DNA from: Candidatus Atabeyarchaeum deiterrae
GTDB taxonomy: Archaea; Asgardarchaeota; Atabeyarchaeia; Atabeyarchaeales; Atabeyarchaeaceae
NCBI GenBank assembly: GCA_037310415.1
Contig: CP147780.1
Span: 1,504,001-1,568,000, forward strand
DNA length: 64,000 nt
Direction: 5' to 3'
Part shown: positions 10,759 through 19,727 of the stretch, piece by piece
How the letters are laid out: every line of letters starts with the position of its first letter
Numbering within the stretch: position 1 is the stretch's first letter
Translations under genes and position numbers: made by a program
Notes under the pieces: model-generated
The model's database searches: none
Told to the model about the DNA's origin: nothing
The model's input: only the letters and a program-made list of their open reading frames with translations

Positions 10759-10975
10759 ATTAGTTCCACTTCTCCTTCATCTCCAGTCTAACACCTCAGC
10801 CACGTATGGGTCGAAAAGAGATAATGAGTCTAGCGAAATCCCTCTCAACCAAGTTGGCTAGAGCCAGTTGCGTGGTGCACTCTGCCAAACGCATCAGGCA
10901 CAACAGTTATACCGACACGAGGCTTTTTGAGTTGACAATTACGACCAACTCAGAGAGAGATTGCACATTTACATA

Positions 10976-11102
10976 TGGAGGGGAGTAGGGGAATCGAACC
11001 CCTGTCGCGGACTATCCACGGTGTGGGTACTGCAGGCCTTAGAGTGAGCTTGGCTAGGTCGGCCAGAAGCTCATCGCCCCTAAGCCACTCGGACAACTCC
11101 CC
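10976..11102 (-). tRNA. tRNA-Cys(GCA) with two introns (28/29, 36 nt, 11074-11039; 37/38, 16 nt, 11029-11014), CCA encoded
   Basis: Spliced product GGGGAGT-TG-TCCG-AGTGGCTT-AGGG-G-CGGGC-CTGCAGA-GTCCG-CGAC-AGGGG-TTCGATT-CCCCT-ACTCCCC-T-CCA is a 75-nt cloverleaf with U73 and G37; relaxed BHB motifs at both junctions; adjacent to cysS genes. Confidence 0.88.
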
Positions 11103-11161
11103 AACATTGCTGATGTACCTCTCCCACGATAGTGAGGTTTATGATTAGTATTTTAAACTTG

Positions 11162-11169
11162 TGGATTTC
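11162..11169. repeat. left target-site duplication TGGATTTC
   Basis: Exact match at 17329-17336, each copy abutting a terminal inverted repeat. Confidence 0.9.
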
Positions 11170-11229
11170 GGTTCTGTCAAGTCTTCGATTGATGCCTAGT
11201 TTTCCTCTCCCTGTAAAGTTTCGGTTGAT
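11170..11229 (+). repeat. left end: terminal IR plus subterminal copy 36 bp inward
   Basis: CTGTCAAGTCTTCGATTGAT (ends 11193) and CTGTAAAGTTTCGGTTGAT (ends 11229). Confidence 0.85.
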
Positions 11230-11313
11230 ATCCTTGTTAATTTGGCCTAGGATGAGAAATAGCATTAACCGTCGTAGGATGCTATCAAAAATCGGTCTCA
11301 CGGGACTAGATTC

Positions 11314-11883
11314 TCAGAGTGTGTTGTCACATTTTGCGCAGAGGTGTCTTTTTGAAGAGATAATAGTTGCCGCCTCTTTACCACATCTCTCACAAATATA
11401 GGGGACTATTCCAAACTCGTCTTTGCCGTTTGGTTCTCTTAACCCCTTTTTGACTTCGTAAAGATACTTATTGAACCTTACAAAATCTCTTTCAGGCCTG
11501 AAACTTCCCCATTCTCTTAGTTTTCTGCTTTCTTCATCCTCCCTTATGAAGACCATATCAAACAGAGCATCTTTTCCCTCGTTCTCATTGCTAACCCCGT
11601 ACGCTATCACTGTATATTCTTCTCCGTTAACTCTGAATGAAACCTCATCCCAAAGTGGGTATCCACCGTTGATATCAAGAGATCCTCTCTGTTCATGCTC
11701 TATCAGTTTTTCTGCGCTCACTCTATCCATTGTATTCTCAAAACTGTTGTTTTCAAGAAGATACTGTGCTTCAAACCAGAAAGCAATATTATCATATGGG
11801 CCTTCCCACAATCTGTCTTCCTTAGGAATCTCAGTTACTATTCTTCTAAACCTTTGCAATTTCTCTGCATATTCTTTGTCCAT
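11314..11883 (-). CDS. hypothetical protein with C-terminal Zn finger (transposon cargo)
   Basis: 189-aa ORF, CERC...CAKC, purine-rich RBS; last gene of the cargo operon. Confidence 0.7.
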   Translation of the reverse strand: MDKEYAEKLQRFRRIVTEIPKEDRLWEGPYDNIAFWFEAQYLLENNSFENTMDRVSAEKLIEHEQRGSLDINGGYPLWDEVSFRVNGEEYTVIAYGVSNENEGKDALFDMVFIREDEESRKLREWGSFRPERDFVRFNKYLYEVKKGLREPNGKDEFGIVPYICERCGKEAATIISSKRHLCAKCDNTL

Positions 11884-11911
11884 CTTGCAGTGTCGCTCTC
11901 CTAACTAACCC

Positions 11912-12667
11912 TTACAACATTAATAGGCCTCCATTCTTTTTCAGCATGAACATTCTGCCTTCTTCCATCGATCCATTATGCCTAATACTGAATGGCCTAG
12001 GAATACCGATGTCCGTCCAGTATCTCGGTTTGGTCATGATTTCTTCAGCGGCGAGTATTCCACTAGCACCTATCTCTGACCAACCTTTTTTCTCAGTAAT
12101 AATCCATTCCGTAGAAAGTGTTGATCTGATCTTCAAAAGCTCACGCTCTGACATAGTAAAGCCATGGCTAAGAAGTTGTCCTTTAATGATCCTATAAGGG
12201 TTGACTATATCGGGTATCCCAGACATCTGCCGCTTTCTATGTACCATATTACTGTAAGCATTCTGCCTATAGAAAATCTGAGCACTACCGTCCAACTCTT
12301 TCAGTGATGCTAGACTGCCCTTGATTGGTTCCGTAACTCCACGGGTCTTAATCACCACATCTGGCACTTCACCAGAAACCCCAAGAATGTCCTCAAGAAT
12401 TTCCTTTTGTGTCACTGGTGCTACATCATCAGGCTCTGGGTTCCCCATCTGATAGCAATACTTATCGACATCGTATGGATGCTTCACTATTTCGCCAAAT
12501 GTCGTCCTCTTCTCGCTAATTCTCCTAGTATTGACTTGAGATACTTCTGCCCCACACCAGAAAAGCTCTGTCTTCTTTTCACCGACGTCACACTGCTTCC
12601 TTAACAAGGGTAGAAAATCCATTCGCCTTATCCATGAATCTGGATATGGTTTAATTTCTACACTCAT
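11912..12667 (-). CDS. hypothetical protein (transposon cargo)
   Basis: 251-aa ORF with strong GGAGG RBS, co-oriented with neighbours; no family recognised. Confidence 0.7.
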   Translation of the reverse strand: MSVEIKPYPDSWIRRMDFLPLLRKQCDVGEKKTELFWCGAEVSQVNTRRISEKRTTFGEIVKHPYDVDKYCYQMGNPEPDDVAPVTQKEILEDILGVSGEVPDVVIKTRGVTEPIKGSLASLKELDGSAQIFYRQNAYSNMVHRKRQMSGIPDIVNPYRIIKGQLLSHGFTMSERELLKIRSTLSTEWIITEKKGWSEIGASGILAAEEIMTKPRYWTDIGIPRPFSIRHNGSMEEGRMFMLKKNGGLLML

Positions 12668-12718
12668 TTCTTCCCCCTCCGTACTGAACTCTTCCTTCTA
12701 TTCCTTCAGATGGTTTGT

Positions 12719-14059
12719 TTATTTCTTCATCTTCTCAGAGAGTCCTTTCTCAGCGGTTCTTAACTTAGCTAGTTGTTCCACACGCATCTTTTCGTATGCC
12801 TTCTCTGCCTGTGTTATCCTGACATTGTGGCATAGCCAGCCTAGATGGTTCGGCTCACCGCAGACTGGACAAAATAACGCTTTATCGTCTACATGATCCA
12901 GAGCCTTCTGTGCCTCAATAGTTCTGGACCAAGCTTGGTACTCTGGAAGCATCTTCTTTGCGAGGAGTTCTATTTGACTCTCCCTAGATGCATCCACTAT
13001 AGCTTTGACTCTCTCTGGTGAGTAAATCTCTCTTGCTTCCTCAACACTGGTCTTAATCTCGTCTACACGCTTCAGTTGTTCATCCTTAGATTGCTTGGTT
13101 GCATCCAACTCATTCAGGACTCTCTCATGGAACTCCCTTGGAAGTTCTGAAACAACCTTCCCAACAACCTCTGGCTCCATACCACTCTTCGGGTTGATGG
13201 TGGCTTCAATGACTCTGCGTGGCGCACCAGACTTCTCAGCTTCCTTTATGATCTTTGGAATCGCCTGAATGCTATCTGCTTCTAGCCCTGACGCACGTTT
13301 GACAAGCCTTTCCTTATCCTTCGTTGGCAAACTCTGAATCTCTGGAGTCTTCGAGATCTTCACAAGTGTTTCTATTTGTTCTCCCTTTTTTATCTCACCA
13401 GAACCAAGAGCTTTGAATGCCTCTTTCCTCATAGTCTCATCCACAATCCGATCTGCGTCTCTTATGGAGGTAACTCCTACTATGCCATCCTCCACAAGTT
13501 TCCATTGTTCAGGATGCCCCAAAAGTTTGATGTAGATGTTGATTGTCGTTCGCGGCACTCCAATATCGTTTGAAAGCTCGGATTGACCCTGTGGCTTAGT
13601 TCCACCCTCTCCACCTTTTTTCGCATCTGCTAAGCTTAGCAGATGCTCCCGATCCTTCTCATACATCTTCTTGACTTCTGCGATGGTGTGGAACTTACCA
13701 CTGTTGATATTCACGACACCCGTTGCATACGCCCACATGCGGTCTAACTCGTTCAGACTTTTCCTTAACGCATCATCTGCGAGCTGACGCTCAAACCATT
13801 GTTGATCAGACAACCCAACTTTCTTTCGTACTGGGACTTTGACACCAACTTTTATCGCCGCTAAAACTCGATTGTGGCCTCTACGAATCATATTATGCTC
13901 ATCAACCTCTATCGGCTCTATTACTCCTTGATGCTTGTAGTTCTCTGAGAGACTAGCTATGAAGTCTTGGTCAAAGACTGTTCTTGGGTTGTTTGGATCA
14001 GACTTCAGAGATTTCGGATCGGTATAGTTTATTTCAATTCTCGATTCGGGTTCAGCCAT
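12719..14059 (-). CDS. ParB/Srx N-terminal-domain protein with HTH-like segment and helical C-terminus
   Basis: DPNNPR...GVIEPIEVD...GHNRVLAA ParB-N motifs; QSELSNDIGVPRTTI HTH; CPVC near the C-terminus. Confidence 0.78.
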   Translation of the reverse strand: MAEPESRIEINYTDPKSLKSDPNNPRTVFDQDFIASLSENYKHQGVIEPIEVDEHNMIRRGHNRVLAAIKVGVKVPVRKKVGLSDQQWFERQLADDALRKSLNELDRMWAYATGVVNINSGKFHTIAEVKKMYEKDREHLLSLADAKKGGEGGTKPQGQSELSNDIGVPRTTINIYIKLLGHPEQWKLVEDGIVGVTSIRDADRIVDETMRKEAFKALGSGEIKKGEQIETLVKISKTPEIQSLPTKDKERLVKRASGLEADSIQAIPKIIKEAEKSGAPRRVIEATINPKSGMEPEVVGKVVSELPREFHERVLNELDATKQSKDEQLKRVDEIKTSVEEAREIYSPERVKAIVDASRESQIELLAKKMLPEYQAWSRTIEAQKALDHVDDKALFCPVCGEPNHLGWLCHNVRITQAEKAYEKMRVEQLAKLRTAEKGLSEKMKK

Positions 14060-14207
14060 TTCCTAATTCACCTTTTGAGCATTTTTTTACCATTTCAATG
14101 AGCTTCTTGATTATAATATCGTAGGTGTCACCTTTTTTACCCATGTCTGCGAGGATTTCGCGTGTCTCCTTTGAAATTTGAATGGTGGTTATGTCTTCTC
14201 TATTCAT
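14052..14207 (-). CDS. small ribbon-helix-helix DNA-binding protein (51 aa)
   Basis: Below ORF-track cutoff; MNREDITTIQISKETREILADMGKKGDTYDIIIKKLIE; stop overlaps the ParB-like start. Confidence 0.8.
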   Translation of the reverse strand: MNREDITTIQISKETREILADMGKKGDTYDIIIKKLIEMVKKCSKGELGNG

Positions 14208-14213
14208 TTATAT

Positions 14214-14303
14214 CGCCTGTAGATTCTATAGGCGTTATTTCCATTTAAGTTTTTCCGTAGTCCCCATAACACTTATATGCCATAGTGGCTATAGTTACTA
14301 TGG
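14214..14303. promoter_or_regulatory. divergent promoter region with two palindromic operators
   Basis: CGCCTGTAGA-T-TCTATAGGCG (14214-14234) and CCATAGTGGCTA-TAGTTACTATGG (14280-14303), each just downstream of a TATA-like box on its own strand. Confidence 0.55.
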
Positions 14304-15469
14304 TGATGAAGATGTTGACTCTGCAAGAGCTTGAGAAAGTCCGTGAAGAAAGAGGCTTAGAAATCGCGAAGGCAAAGGAAACCCAAGTAACTCGAATTGA
14401 TGATGCCAGTTACAAGGTTCTCTCCCAGAGTGGCAACGGAGCTTACCTCGTCTCTCTTACTGAGGATGGATGGGTGTGCGAGTGCCCAGACTACGGGTTC
14501 AGAGGGGTTAAATGTAAGCACATCTGGGCTGTGGAGATCAGCATCACCCTCAAGGAACAAGTTAGGAAGAATGTTGTCCTTGAGGAGGTTACGGTTTCAA
14601 AGTGCCTCTTCTGCCACTCCGAGAACATAAAGAAGTTTGGAGTCAGACGAAACAAGAGCGGCGGTATTCAGCGTTTCCTCTGTGGTGCATGTGGAAGGAC
14701 TTTCAGCGTGAACATAGGCTTCGAGAAGATGAAGCATAATCCTCAAGCCGTCACGTCAGCTATGCAACTATACTTTAGCGGTGAATCTCTGCGTAACACT
14801 ATGAGGTCTCTGAGGTTGCTGGGTGTCGGCGTTTCACATCAGACGGTTTACAACTGGATTAGCAAGTACGTGAAGCTGATGAAGGAATACGTTGAGAAAC
14901 TAACTCCTAATGTGGGCGATACATGGAGAGCCGATGAGCTATACGTGAAAATCAAAGGTGACATGAAGTACCTGTTTGCCTTAATGGATGATGAGACACG
15001 GTTTTGGATTGCTCAAGAGATAGCCGACACCAAGTATAGACACGATGCGGGAAACCTCTTCCGAAAGGGAAAGGAACTCACGGGGAAGAAGCCTCTAACC
15101 CTGATAACGGATGGTCTCTCAGCTTATCACCTTGCGTACAAGAAGGAGTTTTACACGAACTCCAAACCGAGAACGGAGCACATCCAACACATCACTATTA
15201 GAGGAGACCATAACAATAACAAGATGGAGAGGTTCAACGGAGAAATCAGAGGCAGAGAAAAAGTCATAAGAGGACTAAAGAAAAGCAACACGCCAATCCT
15301 TAAAGGCTACCAAGTATTTCACAACTTCATAAAACCACACGAAGGATTAGACGGCAAGACCCCTGCGGAAGCCTGCGGGATTGAGGTCAAGGGGGACAAT
15401 AAGTGGATAACTCTGATCAAAAACGCAACCCAGATGACGAAAGTTGACAGGAAGACGGAGAACACCTAG
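14285..15469 (+). CDS. IS6/IS240-like DDE transposase with N-terminal SWIM Zn finger and Zn ribbon
   Basis: SWIM CECPD...CKH; CLFC...CGAC; HTH VSHQTVYNWI; WRADE, ITDG, NNKMERFN; TPAEACG. True start may be the ATG at 14312. Confidence 0.92.
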   Translation: MAIVTMVMKMLTLQELEKVREERGLEIAKAKETQVTRIDDASYKVLSQSGNGAYLVSLTEDGWVCECPDYGFRGVKCKHIWAVEISITLKEQVRKNVVLEEVTVSKCLFCHSENIKKFGVRRNKSGGIQRFLCGACGRTFSVNIGFEKMKHNPQAVTSAMQLYFSGESLRNTMRSLRLLGVGVSHQTVYNWISKYVKLMKEYVEKLTPNVGDTWRADELYVKIKGDMKYLFALMDDETRFWIAQEIADTKYRHDAGNLFRKGKELTGKKPLTLITDGLSAYHLAYKKEFYTNSKPRTEHIQHITIRGDHNNNKMERFNGEIRGREKVIRGLKKSNTPILKGYQVFHNFIKPHEGLDGKTPAEACGIEVKGDNKWITLIKNATQMTKVDRKTENT

Positions 15470-15491
15470 ATGGCGAATACTTGACAGAACC
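15432..15491 (-). repeat. internal right-end copy (IR plus subterminal site, 36 bp apart)
   Basis: Reverse complement GGTTCTGTCAAGTATTCG matches the left IR 17/18; paired sites agatgacgaaagttgacag (15432) and agatggcgaatacttgacag (15468). Confidence 0.85.
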
Positions 15492-15770
15492 AATTCTAGC
15501 CCCTTTGAAGTAAGCTCAGCTTTTTGGACAATAAGAACAACGCAACCAACCCCAGAAGGCGCATGGTAAGCATGTAAAGACTTAAATACCCTGAGCTGCC
15601 TAAAAATCAAACATATAGGAAGATACATGCGCGTTTACTTCATTTTAGGCGGGAAGGGAGTAGTTGAACTTGGCTGGAGCGCGTGTGCTAAATTGTAAAG
15701 CAACGCATATCCACCTCGGATGGGGATTATTCTGAAACTAACCAGAATCAAGATACTAAGTTGATGAATT

Positions 15771-16412
15771 ATGACTAGAACGCTTAAAGAAAAGGCTATA
15801 GACTATTTTCTTACCCTTTATTTGGTTGATGATGCGTTCTCTCGCTTGAAAATAGGTTTTCTACCTGACACGAAATTGCAGAAATTAGTTTTCCTATCAG
15901 AAAAGTCGATGATTCATGAACGCGAGAAAGGATTCAATTTCAATTTTATCAAGCTCACGCATGGCCCATTCAGTCAAGAGCTTAAGACTAGTTATGACAA
16001 TCTATCTCAAATAGGAATCCTAGGCGAGTTTGGATTAACACCAACAACTAATTCCAAAATAATTTTAGAGGATTTTCAAGAGATAATCAAAAGAAATACG
16101 ACATTCTTTCAGAAAATCACAACCGTGAACAACGATTTTGCTAGAATGCCACTAGAAGAACTTCTCAAGATAATATACGCAATGCCATGGGGTGGAAAAG
16201 ACCAGACCATTGCAGATCTACAACCACGGACACCCATGCTTTACCCATTGAAACCGAACAATGTCAAAATCGAATTTGAATTGACAAATGACGATGTTGA
16301 AAACTTGCTCATGAATTTTGACGTCAAAACAGTCAAAATGTCACTCCAAGCGATGAAAGAAATGAGAGCTGGGGGTTTGCTTACTCATGAGCAGGTCTTC
16401 TCCAATCTATAA
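15771..16412 (+). CDS. Panacea (DUF4065/SocA-like) domain antitoxin with RelB-like C-terminal tail
   Basis: TKLQKLVFL...FIKLTHGPFSQEL motif; tail AMKEMRAGGLLTHEQVF. Confidence 0.7.
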   Translation: MTRTLKEKAIDYFLTLYLVDDAFSRLKIGFLPDTKLQKLVFLSEKSMIHEREKGFNFNFIKLTHGPFSQELKTSYDNLSQIGILGEFGLTPTTNSKIILEDFQEIIKRNTTFFQKITTVNNDFARMPLEELLKIIYAMPWGGKDQTIADLQPRTPMLYPLKPNNVKIEFELTNDDVENLLMNFDVKTVKMSLQAMKEMRAGGLLTHEQVFSNL

Positions 16413-16719
16413 GGATGTGTATACACCTCTTTTTGTTAGCCAGCTTGAGAAACTTGAGAAGAAAGCTAGGGTACGCGCGGAACATATAAGAGACGAGACA
16501 CAAGCCATTCTCGTTGACCCCTATAGGAACATAAAGTTTGGCAAAGCCATATACCGCGGAAAAAGAGAATGGAAAGTTGACGGCGATAGAATACTCTTTG
16601 TTGTATGTAAGCAATGCAGGAAATTGGGCCATCAGAAGTACAATTTATGTGGCGACTGTGAAAGTACTGCTGATGAGACTGTTGTGTTCGCATCTATTGT
16701 AGAAAGCCACAATTACTAA
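16387..16719 (+). CDS. RelE/ParE-like toxin with inserted Cys4 Zn-binding motif
   Basis: YTPLFVSQLEKL...DPY...REWKVDGDRILF, CKQC...CGDC, terminal H-x-Y; overlaps the antitoxin gene. Confidence 0.65.
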   Translation: MSRSSPIYKDVYTPLFVSQLEKLEKKARVRAEHIRDETQAILVDPYRNIKFGKAIYRGKREWKVDGDRILFVVCKQCRKLGHQKYNLCGDCESTADETVVFASIVESHNY

Positions 16720-16792
16720 GCTTGAACCTGTTTTAGGGTCTTCACGTAGGCGCGCTTAACCATATCGTCAATCGTTTTTCACCGCATTTTGC

Positions 16793-16851
16793 ATCAACCG
16801 AAGGGTAACACCCTCACACATCACTCAGATCAACCGCAGAGGTAAATCACC
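16793..16851 (-). repeat. degenerate internal right-end-like site pair
   Basis: ATCAACCG at 16793 and 16829 (36 bp apart), same core and spacing as the outer right end (17269/17305). Confidence 0.6.
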
Positions 16852-17250
16852 TTGGGTAATGTGGCAAAAAAGAAACTATCAACCAAAGAAATCGAAAATA
16901 AGGCAATAGAATGCGTAGAGGGTTATCTGAAGAGCAGGGGAGAAAAGCCAGAAATCACTAAGAAAGGCATCGATGTTATTTCTGGCGAAAAATGGATTGA
17001 AGTTAAGGGAAGTATGAAAAAGGAAACCAATCTAAGAACAACATGGCAAACATTAAAATATGTTGAGAAAAACGATAAACTCCGTGATTTCTTCATTTAC
17101 TATGTCTTTGACATGGAATCAGGGAATCCGAAACTGCTGATTTTCGATCATGATACCTTCGAGAAATATAAACTCAAAGAAATAAGATGGATAATACAAC
17201 CCAGGAAGATAATAAGGGAAACAGGTAAACCTGAGATAATTCGATTGTGA
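16852..17250 (+). CDS. stand-alone PD-(D/E)xK nuclease, DUF3883-like
   Basis: IENKAIE...GIDVIS...IEVKG...FFIYYV pattern. Confidence 0.65.
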   Translation: MGNVAKKKLSTKEIENKAIECVEGYLKSRGEKPEITKKGIDVISGEKWIEVKGSMKKETNLRTTWQTLKYVEKNDKLRDFFIYYVFDMESGNPKLLIFDHDTFEKYKLKEIRWIIQPRKIIRETGKPEIIRL

Positions 17251-17268
17251 AAACTACCTGATAGTACC

Positions 17269-17328
17269 ATCAACCGACTTTTGACAGCCCACCGAGAAAC
17301 AGCGATCAACCTAAGACTTTACAGAACC
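17269..17328 (-). repeat. right end: subterminal site plus terminal IR
   Basis: Reverse complements CTGTCAAAAGTCGGTTGAT and GGTTCTGTAAAGTCTTAGGTTGAT, 36 bp apart. Confidence 0.85.
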
Positions 17329-17336
17329 TGGATTTC
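17329..17336. repeat. right target-site duplication TGGATTTC
   Basis: Exact match to 11162-11169. Confidence 0.9.
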
Positions 17337-17756
17337 AAGCACATTGAATTTGTGTTGGGCTTTCAACCCAGTCAACGAATCTCCTTTCTGAACACTCTCA
17401 GCCATCTATGAAACTCTAGTTTATGCCTTATTGCTAACCTAGTCAGCCGACTTCCAGATGATTTGCCAAAGATTCTCTAAAATGGCCGACTGTGTTCAAT
17501 ACCATTCTATCAACTACAATAGGCCTGCTTCTCTTGCCTGCCGAGAAACGGCACGGAGTCTCTTAATGGCGAGCTATGATCTATTGCGCGAGTGCAACTC
17601 GCTTTGACTCCCTCCGATGATAAGATGTACGCGCAATCTGACTGTTTGTGGAAGTCGACAAGTGGTGTTGCCGAGGGTTGACCGCGAAGAGGCTGTCTAG
17701 AGGCGATAATCTTAAATGCTCCAGTCTTCTCAAGTCTTCTCAGATAACTTCATAAG

Positions 17757-18485
17757 TTGACAACGTTAACGGAGGGGACAACATTACAGAGAAGATCCGT
17801 CTGTGCTCTTATGCTGCTTCTTGGAGTTCTGCTAACGATATCATGCGTACCTTCGCAAGGTGTTAACTATCCGAAAATAGGGGTAAAGATAGGAGACTAT
17901 GCAGACTACTCATACACATTTTGGTTCAACGGATCATATCATACGCCCTTCGATTGGTATAGAATTCTTGTCGCTAACATTAGCCTATCGTCGATCCCTG
18001 GTTACACTGAATTGAGCATTGAGTTCGATGGACATTTTGCCAATGGAACGTGGTATTCTCCATGGACGGGTCACTTGGACTTGAGCAATAATAGCGTCTT
18101 GACTGGCGGGGTTGTCGACGATATCATGTGGATTGTCCCGGCAGATTTGGTTAATGGGCAATTGGTTTCAATCCCATATGTGATAAACGAGACTACCTCA
18201 ATGTTAGTTGCAGGTGCAGTCAGGACTGTCAACCATCTGAGAATTGCTGCAGATAACTTTGGCGCAGGAGACTATCACCCAGACATCTACTGGGACAAAG
18301 CTACTGGAGTGCTGGTCAAAGCCAACATACTTAGACATAATACTTGGACGAACCTCACAATGTTGTCAACAAACATGTGGTCAAATGGTGACTGGACAAC
18401 CTTGCTCCTGATAAGCGGTGGAGTTGCCCTAGTCATAGGAGTTGCGTGCTTAGTTGCTTTTGTGATTCGAAAGAGGCGAAGCTAA
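17757..18485 (+). CDS. secreted, C-terminally membrane-anchored surface protein
   Basis: Signal-like N-terminus, several N-x-S/T sequons, YWDKATGVLV, C-terminal TM helix followed by RKRRS. Confidence 0.75.
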   Translation: MTTLTEGTTLQRRSVCALMLLLGVLLTISCVPSQGVNYPKIGVKIGDYADYSYTFWFNGSYHTPFDWYRILVANISLSSIPGYTELSIEFDGHFANGTWYSPWTGHLDLSNNSVLTGGVVDDIMWIVPADLVNGQLVSIPYVINETTSMLVAGAVRTVNHLRIAADNFGAGDYHPDIYWDKATGVLVKANILRHNTWTNLTMLSTNMWSNGDWTTLLLISGGVALVIGVACLVAFVIRKRRS

Positions 18486-18863
18486 TCGTCAATTAAGAGC
18501 GATAACGACGCGGTAGCTGCGTGGCGTGTCCTCGAAGCAAACCGTGTCGATTCAAGTACTCTTTTTCGTAATTCTTGGTGTGTCAAATCAATCTTAGCAT
18601 CAATTGCTTAGGAGCTACGAGCAGGCTCTGAGCGCCTGATTGGCATCACGTTCATATAGTGTATTTTTTCCTCTTGGATATTTGTTTCAGTCTGCAACTT
18701 GATATCATTGCGGAGCATAGTTGCCTTTGAATTCTTTCGCTAAGAAGACTTATGCTTGCGAACACGCATATGGAGCCTTTGAGACTGCCAACTACCAAAG
18801 GAAATGCGTGACGGAGCAACATTCGAGAACTCAGAACAATCTGAATCTGGGGAAGAAACTCCC

Positions 18864-19727
18864 ATGACGAACAGACTAACAAAGGCGGAGTTCACTAATC
18901 TAGGCAAGATCATGTATCCAGAGGCGAAAATCACGAAGGCTCAGACAATCGAGTACTATATCCGAATGGCCCCTGCGATGCTGGATCTGCTTCATGATAG
19001 ACCATTGGTTTTGACCAGATTCCCAAATGGGATCAATCGGGAAAGCTTCTACGAAAAAGACGCGCCTCTTGGTGCACCATCTTGGATCAAGACTTTCAGG
19101 AAGTATTCCGAAGCGGCTGAAAGAGACATAAACTATGTCCTCTGTAATGATCTTGACACACTTATTTGGCTTGCTAATCTTGCTGCACTCGAGATCCATG
19201 TTACTCTCTCAAAGGCAACTTCTCTTGAAAACCCGGATCTATTGCTTTTTGATTTGGATCCTCAGCCTCCAGCAAGTTTTGATGATGTTGTCTCTGTTGC
19301 TCTACTACTTAAGGAAACCTTAGAAGAACTAGGTTTGAAATCTTTCACAAAAACCTCTGGAAAGAGAGGGCTTCACATCGTGGTTCCTATCGTTAGTGAA
19401 TACAGTTACCGGCAAACTAGAGAGTTCGTTCATCTCATCGGAAAACACTTAGTTAGGAGATCAGAAATCGTAGTCTCCGAGTTTTCAAGAGAAAAGAAGC
19501 CAGGCACCATATATATAGACTACTTGCAGAATTCTCATGGAAGGACTATGGTAAGCCCTTACAGCCTCAGAGCTACACCTGAAGCTACCGTGTCGACACC
19601 GATTGATTGGAAAGATGTCAAGAAAGGATTAAAACCTGAGACGCTGAATCTGTTCACTGTGCCCAATATTAATGAGCGGCCATGGGAGGGCATGCTACGG
19701 GACAGCCAAAGGCTGGATGTGGATTAG
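18864..19727 (+). CDS. ligD: LigD-type primase-polymerase (NHEJ Pol)
   Basis: RFPNG, FYEK, FDLDP, KTSGKRGLH, IDYLQN, PYSLRA, VSTPIDW; in-frame upstream ATG at 18804. Confidence 0.93.
   Translation: MTNRLTKAEFTNLGKIMYPEAKITKAQTIEYYIRMAPAMLDLLHDRPLVLTRFPNGINRESFYEKDAPLGAPSWIKTFRKYSEAAERDINYVLCNDLDTLIWLANLAALEIHVTLSKATSLENPDLLLFDLDPQPPASFDDVVSVALLLKETLEELGLKSFTKTSGKRGLHIVVPIVSEYSYRQTREFVHLIGKHLVRRSEIVVSEFSREKKPGTIYIDYLQNSHGRTMVSPYSLRATPEATVSTPIDWKDVKKGLKPETLNLFTVPNINERPWEGMLRDSQRLDVD

Follow-up and report, generated by a model that had tools for sequence, protein, structure and literature searches.

The locus described here raises the question of how a mobile element with a single transposase can come to hold several gene modules, each followed by what looks like a right end. 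The window, a stretch of 64,000 nucleotides of contig CP147780.1 of Candidatus Atabeyarchaeum deiterrae, contains a single mobile unit. This is an IS6-related cargo transposon of 6159 bp (11170-17328), whose transposase combines SWIM and DDE_Tnp_IS240 domains. All coordinates are positions within the window, and the features are listed in Table 1.

A sequence-only reading of this DNA had pointed to same-orientation pairs of sites with 36-bp spacing at 15432/15468, 16793/16829 and 17269/17305. These pairs, here called R1, R2 and R3, can be read directly from the sequence. As that reading also had it, they lie at the boundaries of the transposase, a two-gene module and a nuclease-like gene, the innermost is a full end over the transposase stop, and only the outermost has a TSD.

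Table 1. Features of the element and its flanking duplications.
Feature	Position	Strand	Details
TSD, left copy	11162..11169		8 bp, TGGATTTC
Left end L	11170..11229	+	score 51; genome rank 2
Solo inner-type site	11282..11300	+	CTATCAAAAATCG + GTCTCA; score above the genome's 99.999th percentile
Left cargo arm	11314..14207	-	four co-oriented genes
Transposase	14285..15469	+	394 aa; SWIM zinc finger and DDE_Tnp_IS240 (IS6-type) domains
R1, intact right end of another recognition type	15432..15491	-	score 48; over transposase stop
Spacer, R1 tip to two-gene module	15492..15753		15492-15596 common to X7 relative
Two-gene module	15771..16719	+	213 aa and overlapping 110 aa with Cys motifs
R2, probable relic right end, TGTTACC-TTGAT subtype	16793..16852	-	both predicted binding sites kept, tip lost
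Nuclease-like gene	16852..17250	+	NOV_C, PF13020
Right end R3	17269..17328	-	hexamer GTTGAT at both sites, 36-bp spacing; genome rank 1
TSD, right copy	17329..17336		8 bp, TGGATTTC

The element and its outer ends

With its seven passenger genes, the element lies within the size range of its relatives (2.3-8 kb) and outside the compact form of the IS6 family, which measures 0.7-1.8 kb and has no passenger genes. It shares the 8-bp TSD of that family. In the element region, TGGATTTC occurs solely at the two positions that flank 11170 and 17328.

The transposase matches the IS6/IS240-type DDE domain PF13610 with an E-value of 9e-17 (61.9 bits, cut-off 27), and its SWIM zinc finger is N-terminal. 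The genome has one copy. Homologues, 5085 in number, occur in Bathyarchaeia, Methanoperedens, Nitrososphaeria, Methanoregula and Asgard-related genomes. In a tree, the transposase is sister to that of L082, whose ends are of the TTGAT type with 36-bp spacing, and the CATCT-type L029 is distant. Closely related transposases in the tree often differ in hexamer type, so calling an end "foreign" or "cognate" is a probabilistic statement.

The genes of the left arm encode 189 aa, 251 aa, 446 aa (a weak ParB_N match) and 51 aa (DUF7557). L082, the closest relative, likewise has a ParB_N gene and a small gene, divergent from its transposase. Apart from the two-gene module, the element's cargo proteins have no relatives in 80 transposase loci (E 1e-3). 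The right flank has no DNA match among 20 related genomes. The sequence adjoining the left end looks like a tRNA, but ARAGORN and Rfam found none.

Among about 80 relatives, every end is built of two sites, one outer and one inner, with an element-specific hexamer in common. In 75 ends the tip is conserved, the hexamers of both sites match, and the spacing is 26-28 or 35-38 bp (about 27 or about 36); the two spacing classes differ by about 9-10 bp, roughly one helical turn. An 8-bp TSD bounds 53 relatives. Together these elements are a widespread, undescribed archaeal family of IS6-related cargo transposons.

In the left end L, the outer site (11170-11193) has the tip GGTTCTGTCAAG and the hexamer ATTGAT, and the inner site (11211-11229) has the hexamer GTTGAT, at a spacing of 36 bp. 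The tip agrees with the GG and cTGTt/caaa motifs of IS6. The ends, however, are two-site structures of 50-60 bp, in contrast to IRs of 15-20 bp. In R3, ATCAACCG stands at 17269 and ATCAACCT at 17305, and the tip ends at 17328. Its 59-bp end recurs, with 2 differences, in another context in run X7. Judged by their hexamers, R3 and L are cognate (both TTGAT type), and they are probably the working ends of the element, with R3 as the functional outer right end.

The solo inner-type site, about 76 bp inward of the outer tip, may be what remains of an inner left end. Inner left ends lie at like offsets in the relatives L007 (78 bp), L011 (66 bp) and L020 (81 bp).

Two inner right ends and their neighbours

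R1 has the motif AGATGACG at 15432 and AGATGGCG at 15468. Its inner site (15432-15450) bears the hexamer TCATCT and its outer site (15468-15491) the hexamer CCATCT. The tip, ACAGAACC, ends at 15491 and is identical to that of L at 13/13 positions; the transposase stop lies at 15467-15469. The tip is 64 nt past codon 381, and this is also the case in 13 relatives where the corresponding end is the terminus. Going by these sequences, a position over the transposase stop is canonical for the family.

Homology of the transposase among the window element, L082 and L125 ends at about codon 381 (15426-15428), and the break at 15428 coincides with R1. R1 is absent from L082. Over the last ~200 nt of the gene L082 is no longer the closest relative, but this discordance is weak evidence, as the stretch is generally conserved. 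In a contig of run X7 that is ~94% identical, 15379-15491 is replaced by 178 letters, and homology is back exactly at 15492. The contigs of four public runs, examined for shorter forms and circles of the element, gave this as their one informative joint and showed no excision or empty site. A scan for CATCT-type ends yielded 20 contigs; in none of them is an end identical to that of R1, and no donor was identified among them.

The spacer that follows R1 matches nothing else in the genome and none of the retrieved loci. An exact search of JGI metagenomes with 15492-15519 gave 0 matches. Neither visual inspection nor an end detector revealed a relic left end at 15492-15560.

The two-gene module is a putative toxin-antitoxin pair. 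Its 213-aa protein has a sub-threshold match to SocA_Panacea (PF13274; E-value 0.014; 16.7 bits, cut-off 25.7), and the 110-aa partner has no family match. The module recurs beside transposon termini in L086, L032, L100-104, L096-99 and L006; in L086, L100-104 and L032 it is 4-42 bp from a functional terminus. L086 is a TSD-flanked mini-element of 1416 bp that has kept the ends and the two-gene module along with a remnant of a transposase. It is 75% identical in DNA to 15754-16745, and its functional end is where R2 stands in the window element.

R2 has the motif ATCAACCG at both 16793 and 16829. Its TGTTACC core is common to the functional ends of L083 and L012, which it matches except at the tip, where 7 nt have been destroyed (GGTTCTG to AGGTGAT). 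The nuclease-like gene begins directly afterwards, probably with a GTG start at 16861. Copies of the gene in virus-like and other contexts are homologous to it in DNA from 16852/16858 to 17222/17255. The homology sets in at 16852, one base past the R2 tip, and takes in 9 nt before the start codon. No element pairing this gene with an R3-type end was found, and scans of genome contigs with single proteins (213 aa and 132 aa) were uninformative.

In homologues, cargo breakpoints thus coincide with the internal pairs to the nucleotide (15492, 16852). The 8-mers that follow the tips of R1 (AATTCTAG) and R2 (TTGGGTAA) each occur once in the element, so there is no surviving TSD from a nested guest.

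Origin of the cargo

R1 and R2 are probably former termini of other family members, and the cargo would have accreted through insertions of related elements. The inner ends are bona fide ends of relatives, they lie at homology breakpoints, and the TSD is at the outer pair only, which is the pattern of a nested or compound transposon. Stepwise accretion is supported by the breakpoints at ends, by ten tip-to-tip pairs of different-type elements whose gap is exactly the shared 8-bp TSD, and by about 15 internal foreign ends in relatives, all of them intergenic and outward-facing.

In this explanation, each end of a family element would bear two predicted transposase-binding sites sharing the element-specific hexamer. 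R1 and R2 would have been internalised as related elements inserted into or directly beside each other, and redundant parts may afterwards have been lost or swapped through recombination. R2 would be the real terminus of a former element that bore the two-gene module. Transposition would have joined this terminus to DNA 9 bp upstream of the nuclease-like gene, itself adjoining R3, and the cleavage tip would have mutated away later. At R1, a CATCT-type relative may recently have supplied its own end in place of the transposase-stop segment, most likely by inserting at the end already there, after which the two transposase genes recombined. The boundaries, end types and family habits are shown by the data; how the events followed one another, and by which recombination steps, is inferred. 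The presumed guest elements have left no visible relic of their partner left ends except the solo site at 11282.

An alternative is that a single lineage grew outward, with first R1, then R2 and then R3 as its terminus. Here the transposase would pass its own end, use a more distal one and take the intervening DNA along. Each inner end does stand where relatives have a functional terminus, the R2 tip marks a true transposition junction beyond which lies former flanking DNA, and the inner ends of the family all point outward from the transposase. The last move, moreover, used L and R3 and thus skipped R1 and R2. Growth of this kind predicts, however, that the older ends are cognate, yet it is the outer pair that fits the transposase clade, and R1 (CATCT) and R2 (TGTTACC core) are of other types. 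The same holds in L020, L022, L066 and L005, where again the outer pair and not the inner ends matches the clade. R1 is also missing from the nearest relative and replaced in the ~94%-identical contig, and as a family end the outer one is perfect, not a fortuitous look-alike. This route is therefore rather unlikely.

It is less likely still that the inner pairs are retained for a present function, either as alternative ends giving three sizes of element or as transposase-bound operators or promoters serving the cargo downstream. The intact tip of R1 would suit such a role, as would the two predicted binding sites kept in R2, which lies directly upstream of the nuclease-like gene, a gene that lacks a promoter region of its own; tip-dead inner ends also recur in L008 and L006. 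On the other hand, the one copy in the genome has no shorter form beside it, R2 has lost its tip, and neither inner end is of the element's own recognition type.

Finally, it is very improbable that the 16793/16829 pair is a chance likeness and that R1 and R3 are the only real right ends: the octamer CGGTTGAT occurs twice at an allowed spacing only once in the 2.76-Mb genome, at R2 (0.005 expected), R2 matches the ends of L083 at 77% over 53 bp, it occupies the place of a functional terminus in L086, and the homology of the nuclease-like gene breaks at its tip. A two-site PWM trained solely on TTGAT-type ends from other genomes gives R3, L, R1 and R2 ranks 1, 2, 3 and 5 of ~5.5 million positions, and a chance origin was rejected on this rank and on the unique octamer pair. 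A type-blind two-site model, in which R2 reaches no more than the genome's 99.99th percentile, is more favourable to chance, so the significance of R2 rests on its hexamers and on the TGTTACC core shared with L083 and L012. The 13-nt tip (0-1 mismatch, with a second site) is found at three places in the element and nowhere else in the genome.

The observations of the sequence-only reading are upheld, and its interpretation is upheld in part. Its three structures are genuine right ends, the inner two being relics of related but distinct elements (CATCT; TGTTACC-TTGAT), and the middle pair scores above background. Its suggestion that relatives insert at or recombine between ends agrees with the 8-bp tip-to-tip arrays, the nested foreign ends and the mosaic transposase gene. 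Its idea of stepwise capture stands as accretion. Growth of one lineage by skipping its own end finds no support, as both the transposase clade and the left end fit the outer end and the inner ends are foreign. The same is true of an integron-like array of cassettes with a putative defence role, for which there is no dedicated capture site or recombinase.

Accretion by insertion of related elements may, more tentatively, be a general property of the family and achieved by the transposase only. A hexamer (and core-variant) code would define many mutually distinct types, and incoming elements would target the exact boundaries of resident ends to give the 8-bp tip-to-tip arrays. Cargo-bearing non-autonomous shells would then merge with autonomous cores by recombination, and inner ends would be silenced by tip mutation. 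If so, the two-gene pair and the nuclease-like gene would be shuffled in this way among elements, viruses and chromosomes across archaeal phyla. The locus itself is a nucleotide-level record of cargo assembly by a single-transposase element in archaea, where cargo transposons are poorly described.

Comparison with known systems

Members of the IS6/IS26 family form cointegrates replicatively, and host recombination resolves these. They measure 0.7-1.8 kb, have IRs of 15-20 bp and in only one case include a passenger gene (PMC7986276). The archaeal elements share with it the DDE_Tnp_IS240 core, the 8-bp TSD, the GG start of the tip and the CTGT and CAA motifs. They differ in their size of 2.3-8 kb, in always carrying cargo, in their two-part ends of 50-60 bp with a type-specific hexamer, and in the N-terminal SWIM zinc finger of the transposase. 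Two phased sites per end whose hexamers co-vary, distinct spacing classes, tip-dead inner ends and insertion exactly alongside a resident end are absent from the IS6 literature examined. Such features could explain how defence- or addiction-like genes travel among archaeal chromosomes, viruses and transposons.

Small derivatives of the family, such as L086 and the 74-bp element of ends alone in L067, resemble non-autonomous deletion derivatives or MITEs. Unlike these, the archaeal derivatives carry functional cargo and seem to serve as units from which larger elements are put together.

Tn1721/Tn1722 and other Tn3-family transposons have three IRs of the same type. A same-orientation inner end delimits the basic transposon, which is still mobile, extra cargo lies between the inner and outer end, and the extra end is a duplicate. 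The archaeal element has the same arrangement of a same-orientation inner end and extra cargo. Its inner ends, in contrast, are foreign-type or tip-dead, and its transposase is of a different family.

In ISEcp1-type one-ended capture, use of a distal end mobilises adjacent genes and creates a new TSD around the larger unit. The alternative right ends of ISEcp1 are poor, fortuitous look-alikes, so that the inner end is cognate and the outer a surrogate. In the archaeal element, by contrast, the distal end is a perfect family end, and the outer ends match both each other and the transposase clade.

Integrons, too, have small gene modules in series, separated by repeated recombination sites. The archaeal element has no integrase, attI, attC or common promoter, and its "sites" are transposon ends, so the resemblance is superficial. 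An integrase domain is absent from all eight element proteins, and the integron reading is rejected for this reason.

When a Tn7-like element inserts inside or beside another, several left and right ends result; nested mobile elements and toxin-antitoxin modules are a main source of cargo in these elements (PMC8649781). They use multi-protein machinery and attachment sites, and none were found in archaea in that survey (PMC8649781). The archaeal element differs in its single transposase, and its family in nucleotide-precise tip-to-tip arrays. Nested transposons that leave relic ends are already known from the bacterial Tn3-family and Tn7-like elements; here they are seen in an undescribed archaeal family.

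Layout of the element and its outer ends

The element W (11170-17328) is bounded by a left end, L, and an outer right end, R3. Between them lie two inner right ends, R1 and R2.

Features of element W, in window coordinates
Feature	Position	Site pair	Description
L	11170-11229		Left end
Left arm			Four genes, one with a weak ParB_N match and one coding for a DUF7557 protein
Transposase	stop codon 15467-15469		394 aa, SWIM and DDE_Tnp_IS240
R1	15432-15491	15432/15468, 36 bp apart	Tip ends at 15491, over the transposase stop
Two-gene module	15771-16719		213-aa and 110-aa genes, overlapping
R2	16793-16852	16793/16829, 36 bp apart	Orientation as R1 and R3
Nuclease-like gene	16852/16861-17250		132 aa, NOV_C
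R3	17269-17328	17269/17305, 36 bp apart	Tip at 17328

Read directly, the sequence contains all three same-orientation site pairs with 36-bp spacing reported by the sequence-only reading. That reading placed a target-site duplication (TSD) at the outermost end alone, and this holds: TGGATTTC flanks only 11170 and 17328, and the 8-mers following the R1 and R2 tips are each unique within the element. In the complete 2.76-Mb genome the transposase is present in one copy, and the full tip occurs at three places only, all in W.

An independent assembly (Logan contig L085, 4201 bp) is 99.8% identical to 14989-19192, a segment that covers all three right ends, the two-gene module and nuclease-like gene between them, and the flank. 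The 213-aa gene is broken up by three gaps relative to the window; they could be sequencing errors or a genuine frameshift variant. The 213-aa/110-aa pair is a putative toxin-antitoxin system, with a sub-threshold Panacea match for the 213-aa protein.

A ParB_N-like gene and a small upstream gene, divergent from the transposase, are found both in W (11314-14207) and in its closest relative (L082:8530-9924). Their proteins have diverged beyond the reach of tblastn. It is possible that these two genes are not free cargo but a conserved accessory pair.

At 10975-11104 (minus strand), 65 bp from the left end, the sequence resembles a tRNA. Neither ARAGORN nor Rfam calls it, probably because of an intron inside. 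In contigs from two public sequencing runs (X5 and X7), 23-24 other letters stand at 10988-10995; the insert therefore differs from one relative to another.

Homologues of the transposase number 5085, and the analysis covered 80 genomic loci, which come from Bathyarchaeia, Methanoperedens, Nitrososphaeria, Methanoregula, Thermoplasmata, and Asgard-related MAGs. The relatives have a single end design in common, consisting of an outer site (GGTTCTGT[CAGT]AAGTCTNCG plus a hexamer) and an inner site (CTGT[CA]AAAANTCG plus the identical hexamer). The hexamers are spaced 26-28 or 35-38 bp apart, two classes that differ by about 9-10 bp, or roughly one helical turn. Each element uses one hexamer at both sites and both ends, and hexamers vary among elements (GTTGAT, TCGGAT, TTTGGT, GGGGGT, TCAGAT, GCATCT, and others). 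Every family element carries cargo, and sizes range from about 2.3 to 8 kb; a perfect 8-bp TSD was found in 53 element pairs among the relatives.

L067:12101-12174 is a minimal shell of 74 bp in which a left tip joins a right end directly, with nothing else; a full element has its right end 8 bp away. The genome of W also holds a second, degenerate family element of about 1.2 kb outside the window (G000:C1, about 2229227 (+) to 2230447 (-)). It has outer sites of the GGTGAT type with a TGTTAAC core at both ends, and is without clear inner sites or a transposase match.

L and R3 are both of the TTGAT type with 36-bp spacing, and a PWM trained on other genomes only places R3 and L first and second genome-wide. 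The W transposase is sister to that of L082 (84% aa); the ends of the L082 element (TSD CGATATCA) are likewise of the TTGAT type, spaced 36 bp. The only full transposase with CATCT-type ends, in L029, belongs to a distant clade. End types are clustered on the transposase tree, yet they switch often, so cognacy is a matter of probability: L and R3 are probably cognate with the W transposase.

The inner right ends

With a score of 48, R1 resembles a working end; L and R3 score 51-52. Its hexamers (CCATCT/TCATCT) differ in type from those of L and R3, in agreement with the earlier proposal that the innermost pair derives from a related but distinct element. CATCT-type ends with 36-37-bp spacing can be found in 20 metagenome contigs and in L029. 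Of 89 full-length transposase copies, 13 have a right end that extends over the 3' terminus of the gene; its tip lies 55 nt past codon 381 where the spacing is short and 64-65 nt past it where the spacing is long.

DNA homology between W, L082, and L125 ends at one point, codon ~381 (W 15426-15428). At this breakpoint L082 has no end, and in L125 a decayed end of the TTGAT type precedes a cargo gene. A 536-bp contig from run X7, which belongs to another study, is about 94% identical to W; it matches 15146-15378, continues with 178 other letters, and matches W again from exactly 15492. Over the last ~200 nt of the gene, L082 is no longer the closest relative. From the breakpoint, the replacement in X7, and this loss of closeness, the transposase tail and R1 appear to have been swapped in together recently, with the R1 tip as the right boundary. 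Along 14285-15469, the best match passes from L082/L125 to L008 (15000-15280) and to others past 15280, which suggests frequent recombination among family members.

The degenerate pair at R2 stands above background. It ranks fifth among about 5.5 million positions with a PWM trained on other genomes, and no other CGGTTGAT pair in the genome has an allowed spacing, against an expectation of 0.005. Its core is a distinct subtype, TGTTACC, as in the TSD-flanked functional ends of L083 and L012, with agreement at 16/17 positions of the outer core and hexamer and at 16/19 of the inner site. At the tip, the 7 nt GGTTCTG have changed to AGGTGAT. Given the core match and the altered tip, R2 is a real end of another subtype whose cleavage tip was destroyed.

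The two-gene module to the left of R2 recurs at transposon termini in relatives. The 3' end of the small gene faces the tip at a distance of 42 bp in L086, 16 bp in L100-104, and 4 bp in L032; by this recurrence, R2 occupies the place of the working terminus in relatives. L086:7635-9050 is a non-autonomous 1416-bp element with TSD CACTCTCC on both flanks and the module as its sole genes. Its order is left outer site, remnant of an L082-like transposase 3' end (the last ~16 codons, fused to the outer site), spacer, module, and right end. Identity between L086 and W 15754-16745 is 75%, and the match extends 26 bp beyond the stop codon.

To the right of R2, DNA homology to other copies of the nuclease-like gene begins at 16852/16858 and ends at 17222/17255. 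The 9 nt ahead of the start codon, TTGGGTAAT, are common to W, L094, and L090; upstream of 16852, W has nothing in common with the homologues' DNA. Since homology begins at 16852, the R2 tip is a transposition junction, 9 bp upstream of the gene. None of the homologues has transposon ends nearby; their surroundings are virus-like in L087/88, include an adjacent integrase in L094, and are of other kinds in L090 and L092. A host shell carrying the gene was not found. In W the gene ends 18 bp short of the R3 inner edge. Breakpoints in homologues therefore coincide with the internal pairs, as had been predicted, both at R1 (X7) and at R2 (nuclease homology).

Insertion and recombination among relatives

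Ten tip-to-tip pairs of different-type elements have exactly 8 bp between them. The intervening 8-mer is also the TSD on the far sides, with four copies in L032 and five in L043. This spacing and the shared TSD indicate that new elements insert exactly where resident ends stop. Rows of three or more elements of different types, with one and the same 8-mer between neighbours, stand at L032:7227-16700 (TGCCGCGA) and L043:8908-14992 (TTGAATAT), which implies repeated insertion into exactly the same target beside resident ends.

Extra inner ends are present in about one in five TSD-bounded elements. Almost all are of another type, and every one is intergenic and directed outward from the transposase. 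Between the inner and outer right ends there is often one small gene. In L007, L011, and L020, an inner left end is located 66-81 bp inward of the outer tip, and the solo inner-type site at W 11282 would fit a relic of such an end about 76 bp inside the outer tip. Tip-dead inner ends also occur in L008 and L006.

Related elements may thus land inside or beside one another. Recombination between co-oriented transposase genes, or deletion, would leave one transposase and remove the inward-facing end. The surviving transposase could then move the whole unit via the end pair it recognises, and inner ends would stay on as foreign-type or tip-dead relics. Such a course of events would produce foreign inner-end types, outward orientation, a single mosaic transposase, and exact breakpoints. 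Left ends of the guest elements are missing from W.

Two routes of growth had been offered earlier. Insertion of relatives at ends, or recombination between them, is favored by the 8-bp tip-to-tip arrays, the foreign inner ends, and the mosaic transposase. Pure end-skipping by one lineage agrees with the last move of W, which bypassed R1 and R2, but it predicts cognate inner ends, and those of W are foreign; growth by this route is not borne out.

Comparison with known systems

The likeness to an integron array, also suggested earlier, is only a loose analogy, since W lacks an integrase. Multiple ends also occur in Tn1721 and Tn21. In Tn7-like elements, they result from internal or adjacent insertion (PMC8649781). 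The W family is placed with IS6, with which it has the core enzyme, TSD, and tip in common. IS6 elements have 15-20-bp IRs and a size of 0.7-1.8 kb, and one member carries a passenger (PMC7986276). In view of the short IRs, small size, and single passenger-carrying member in that review, the W family is an undescribed variant relative to it.
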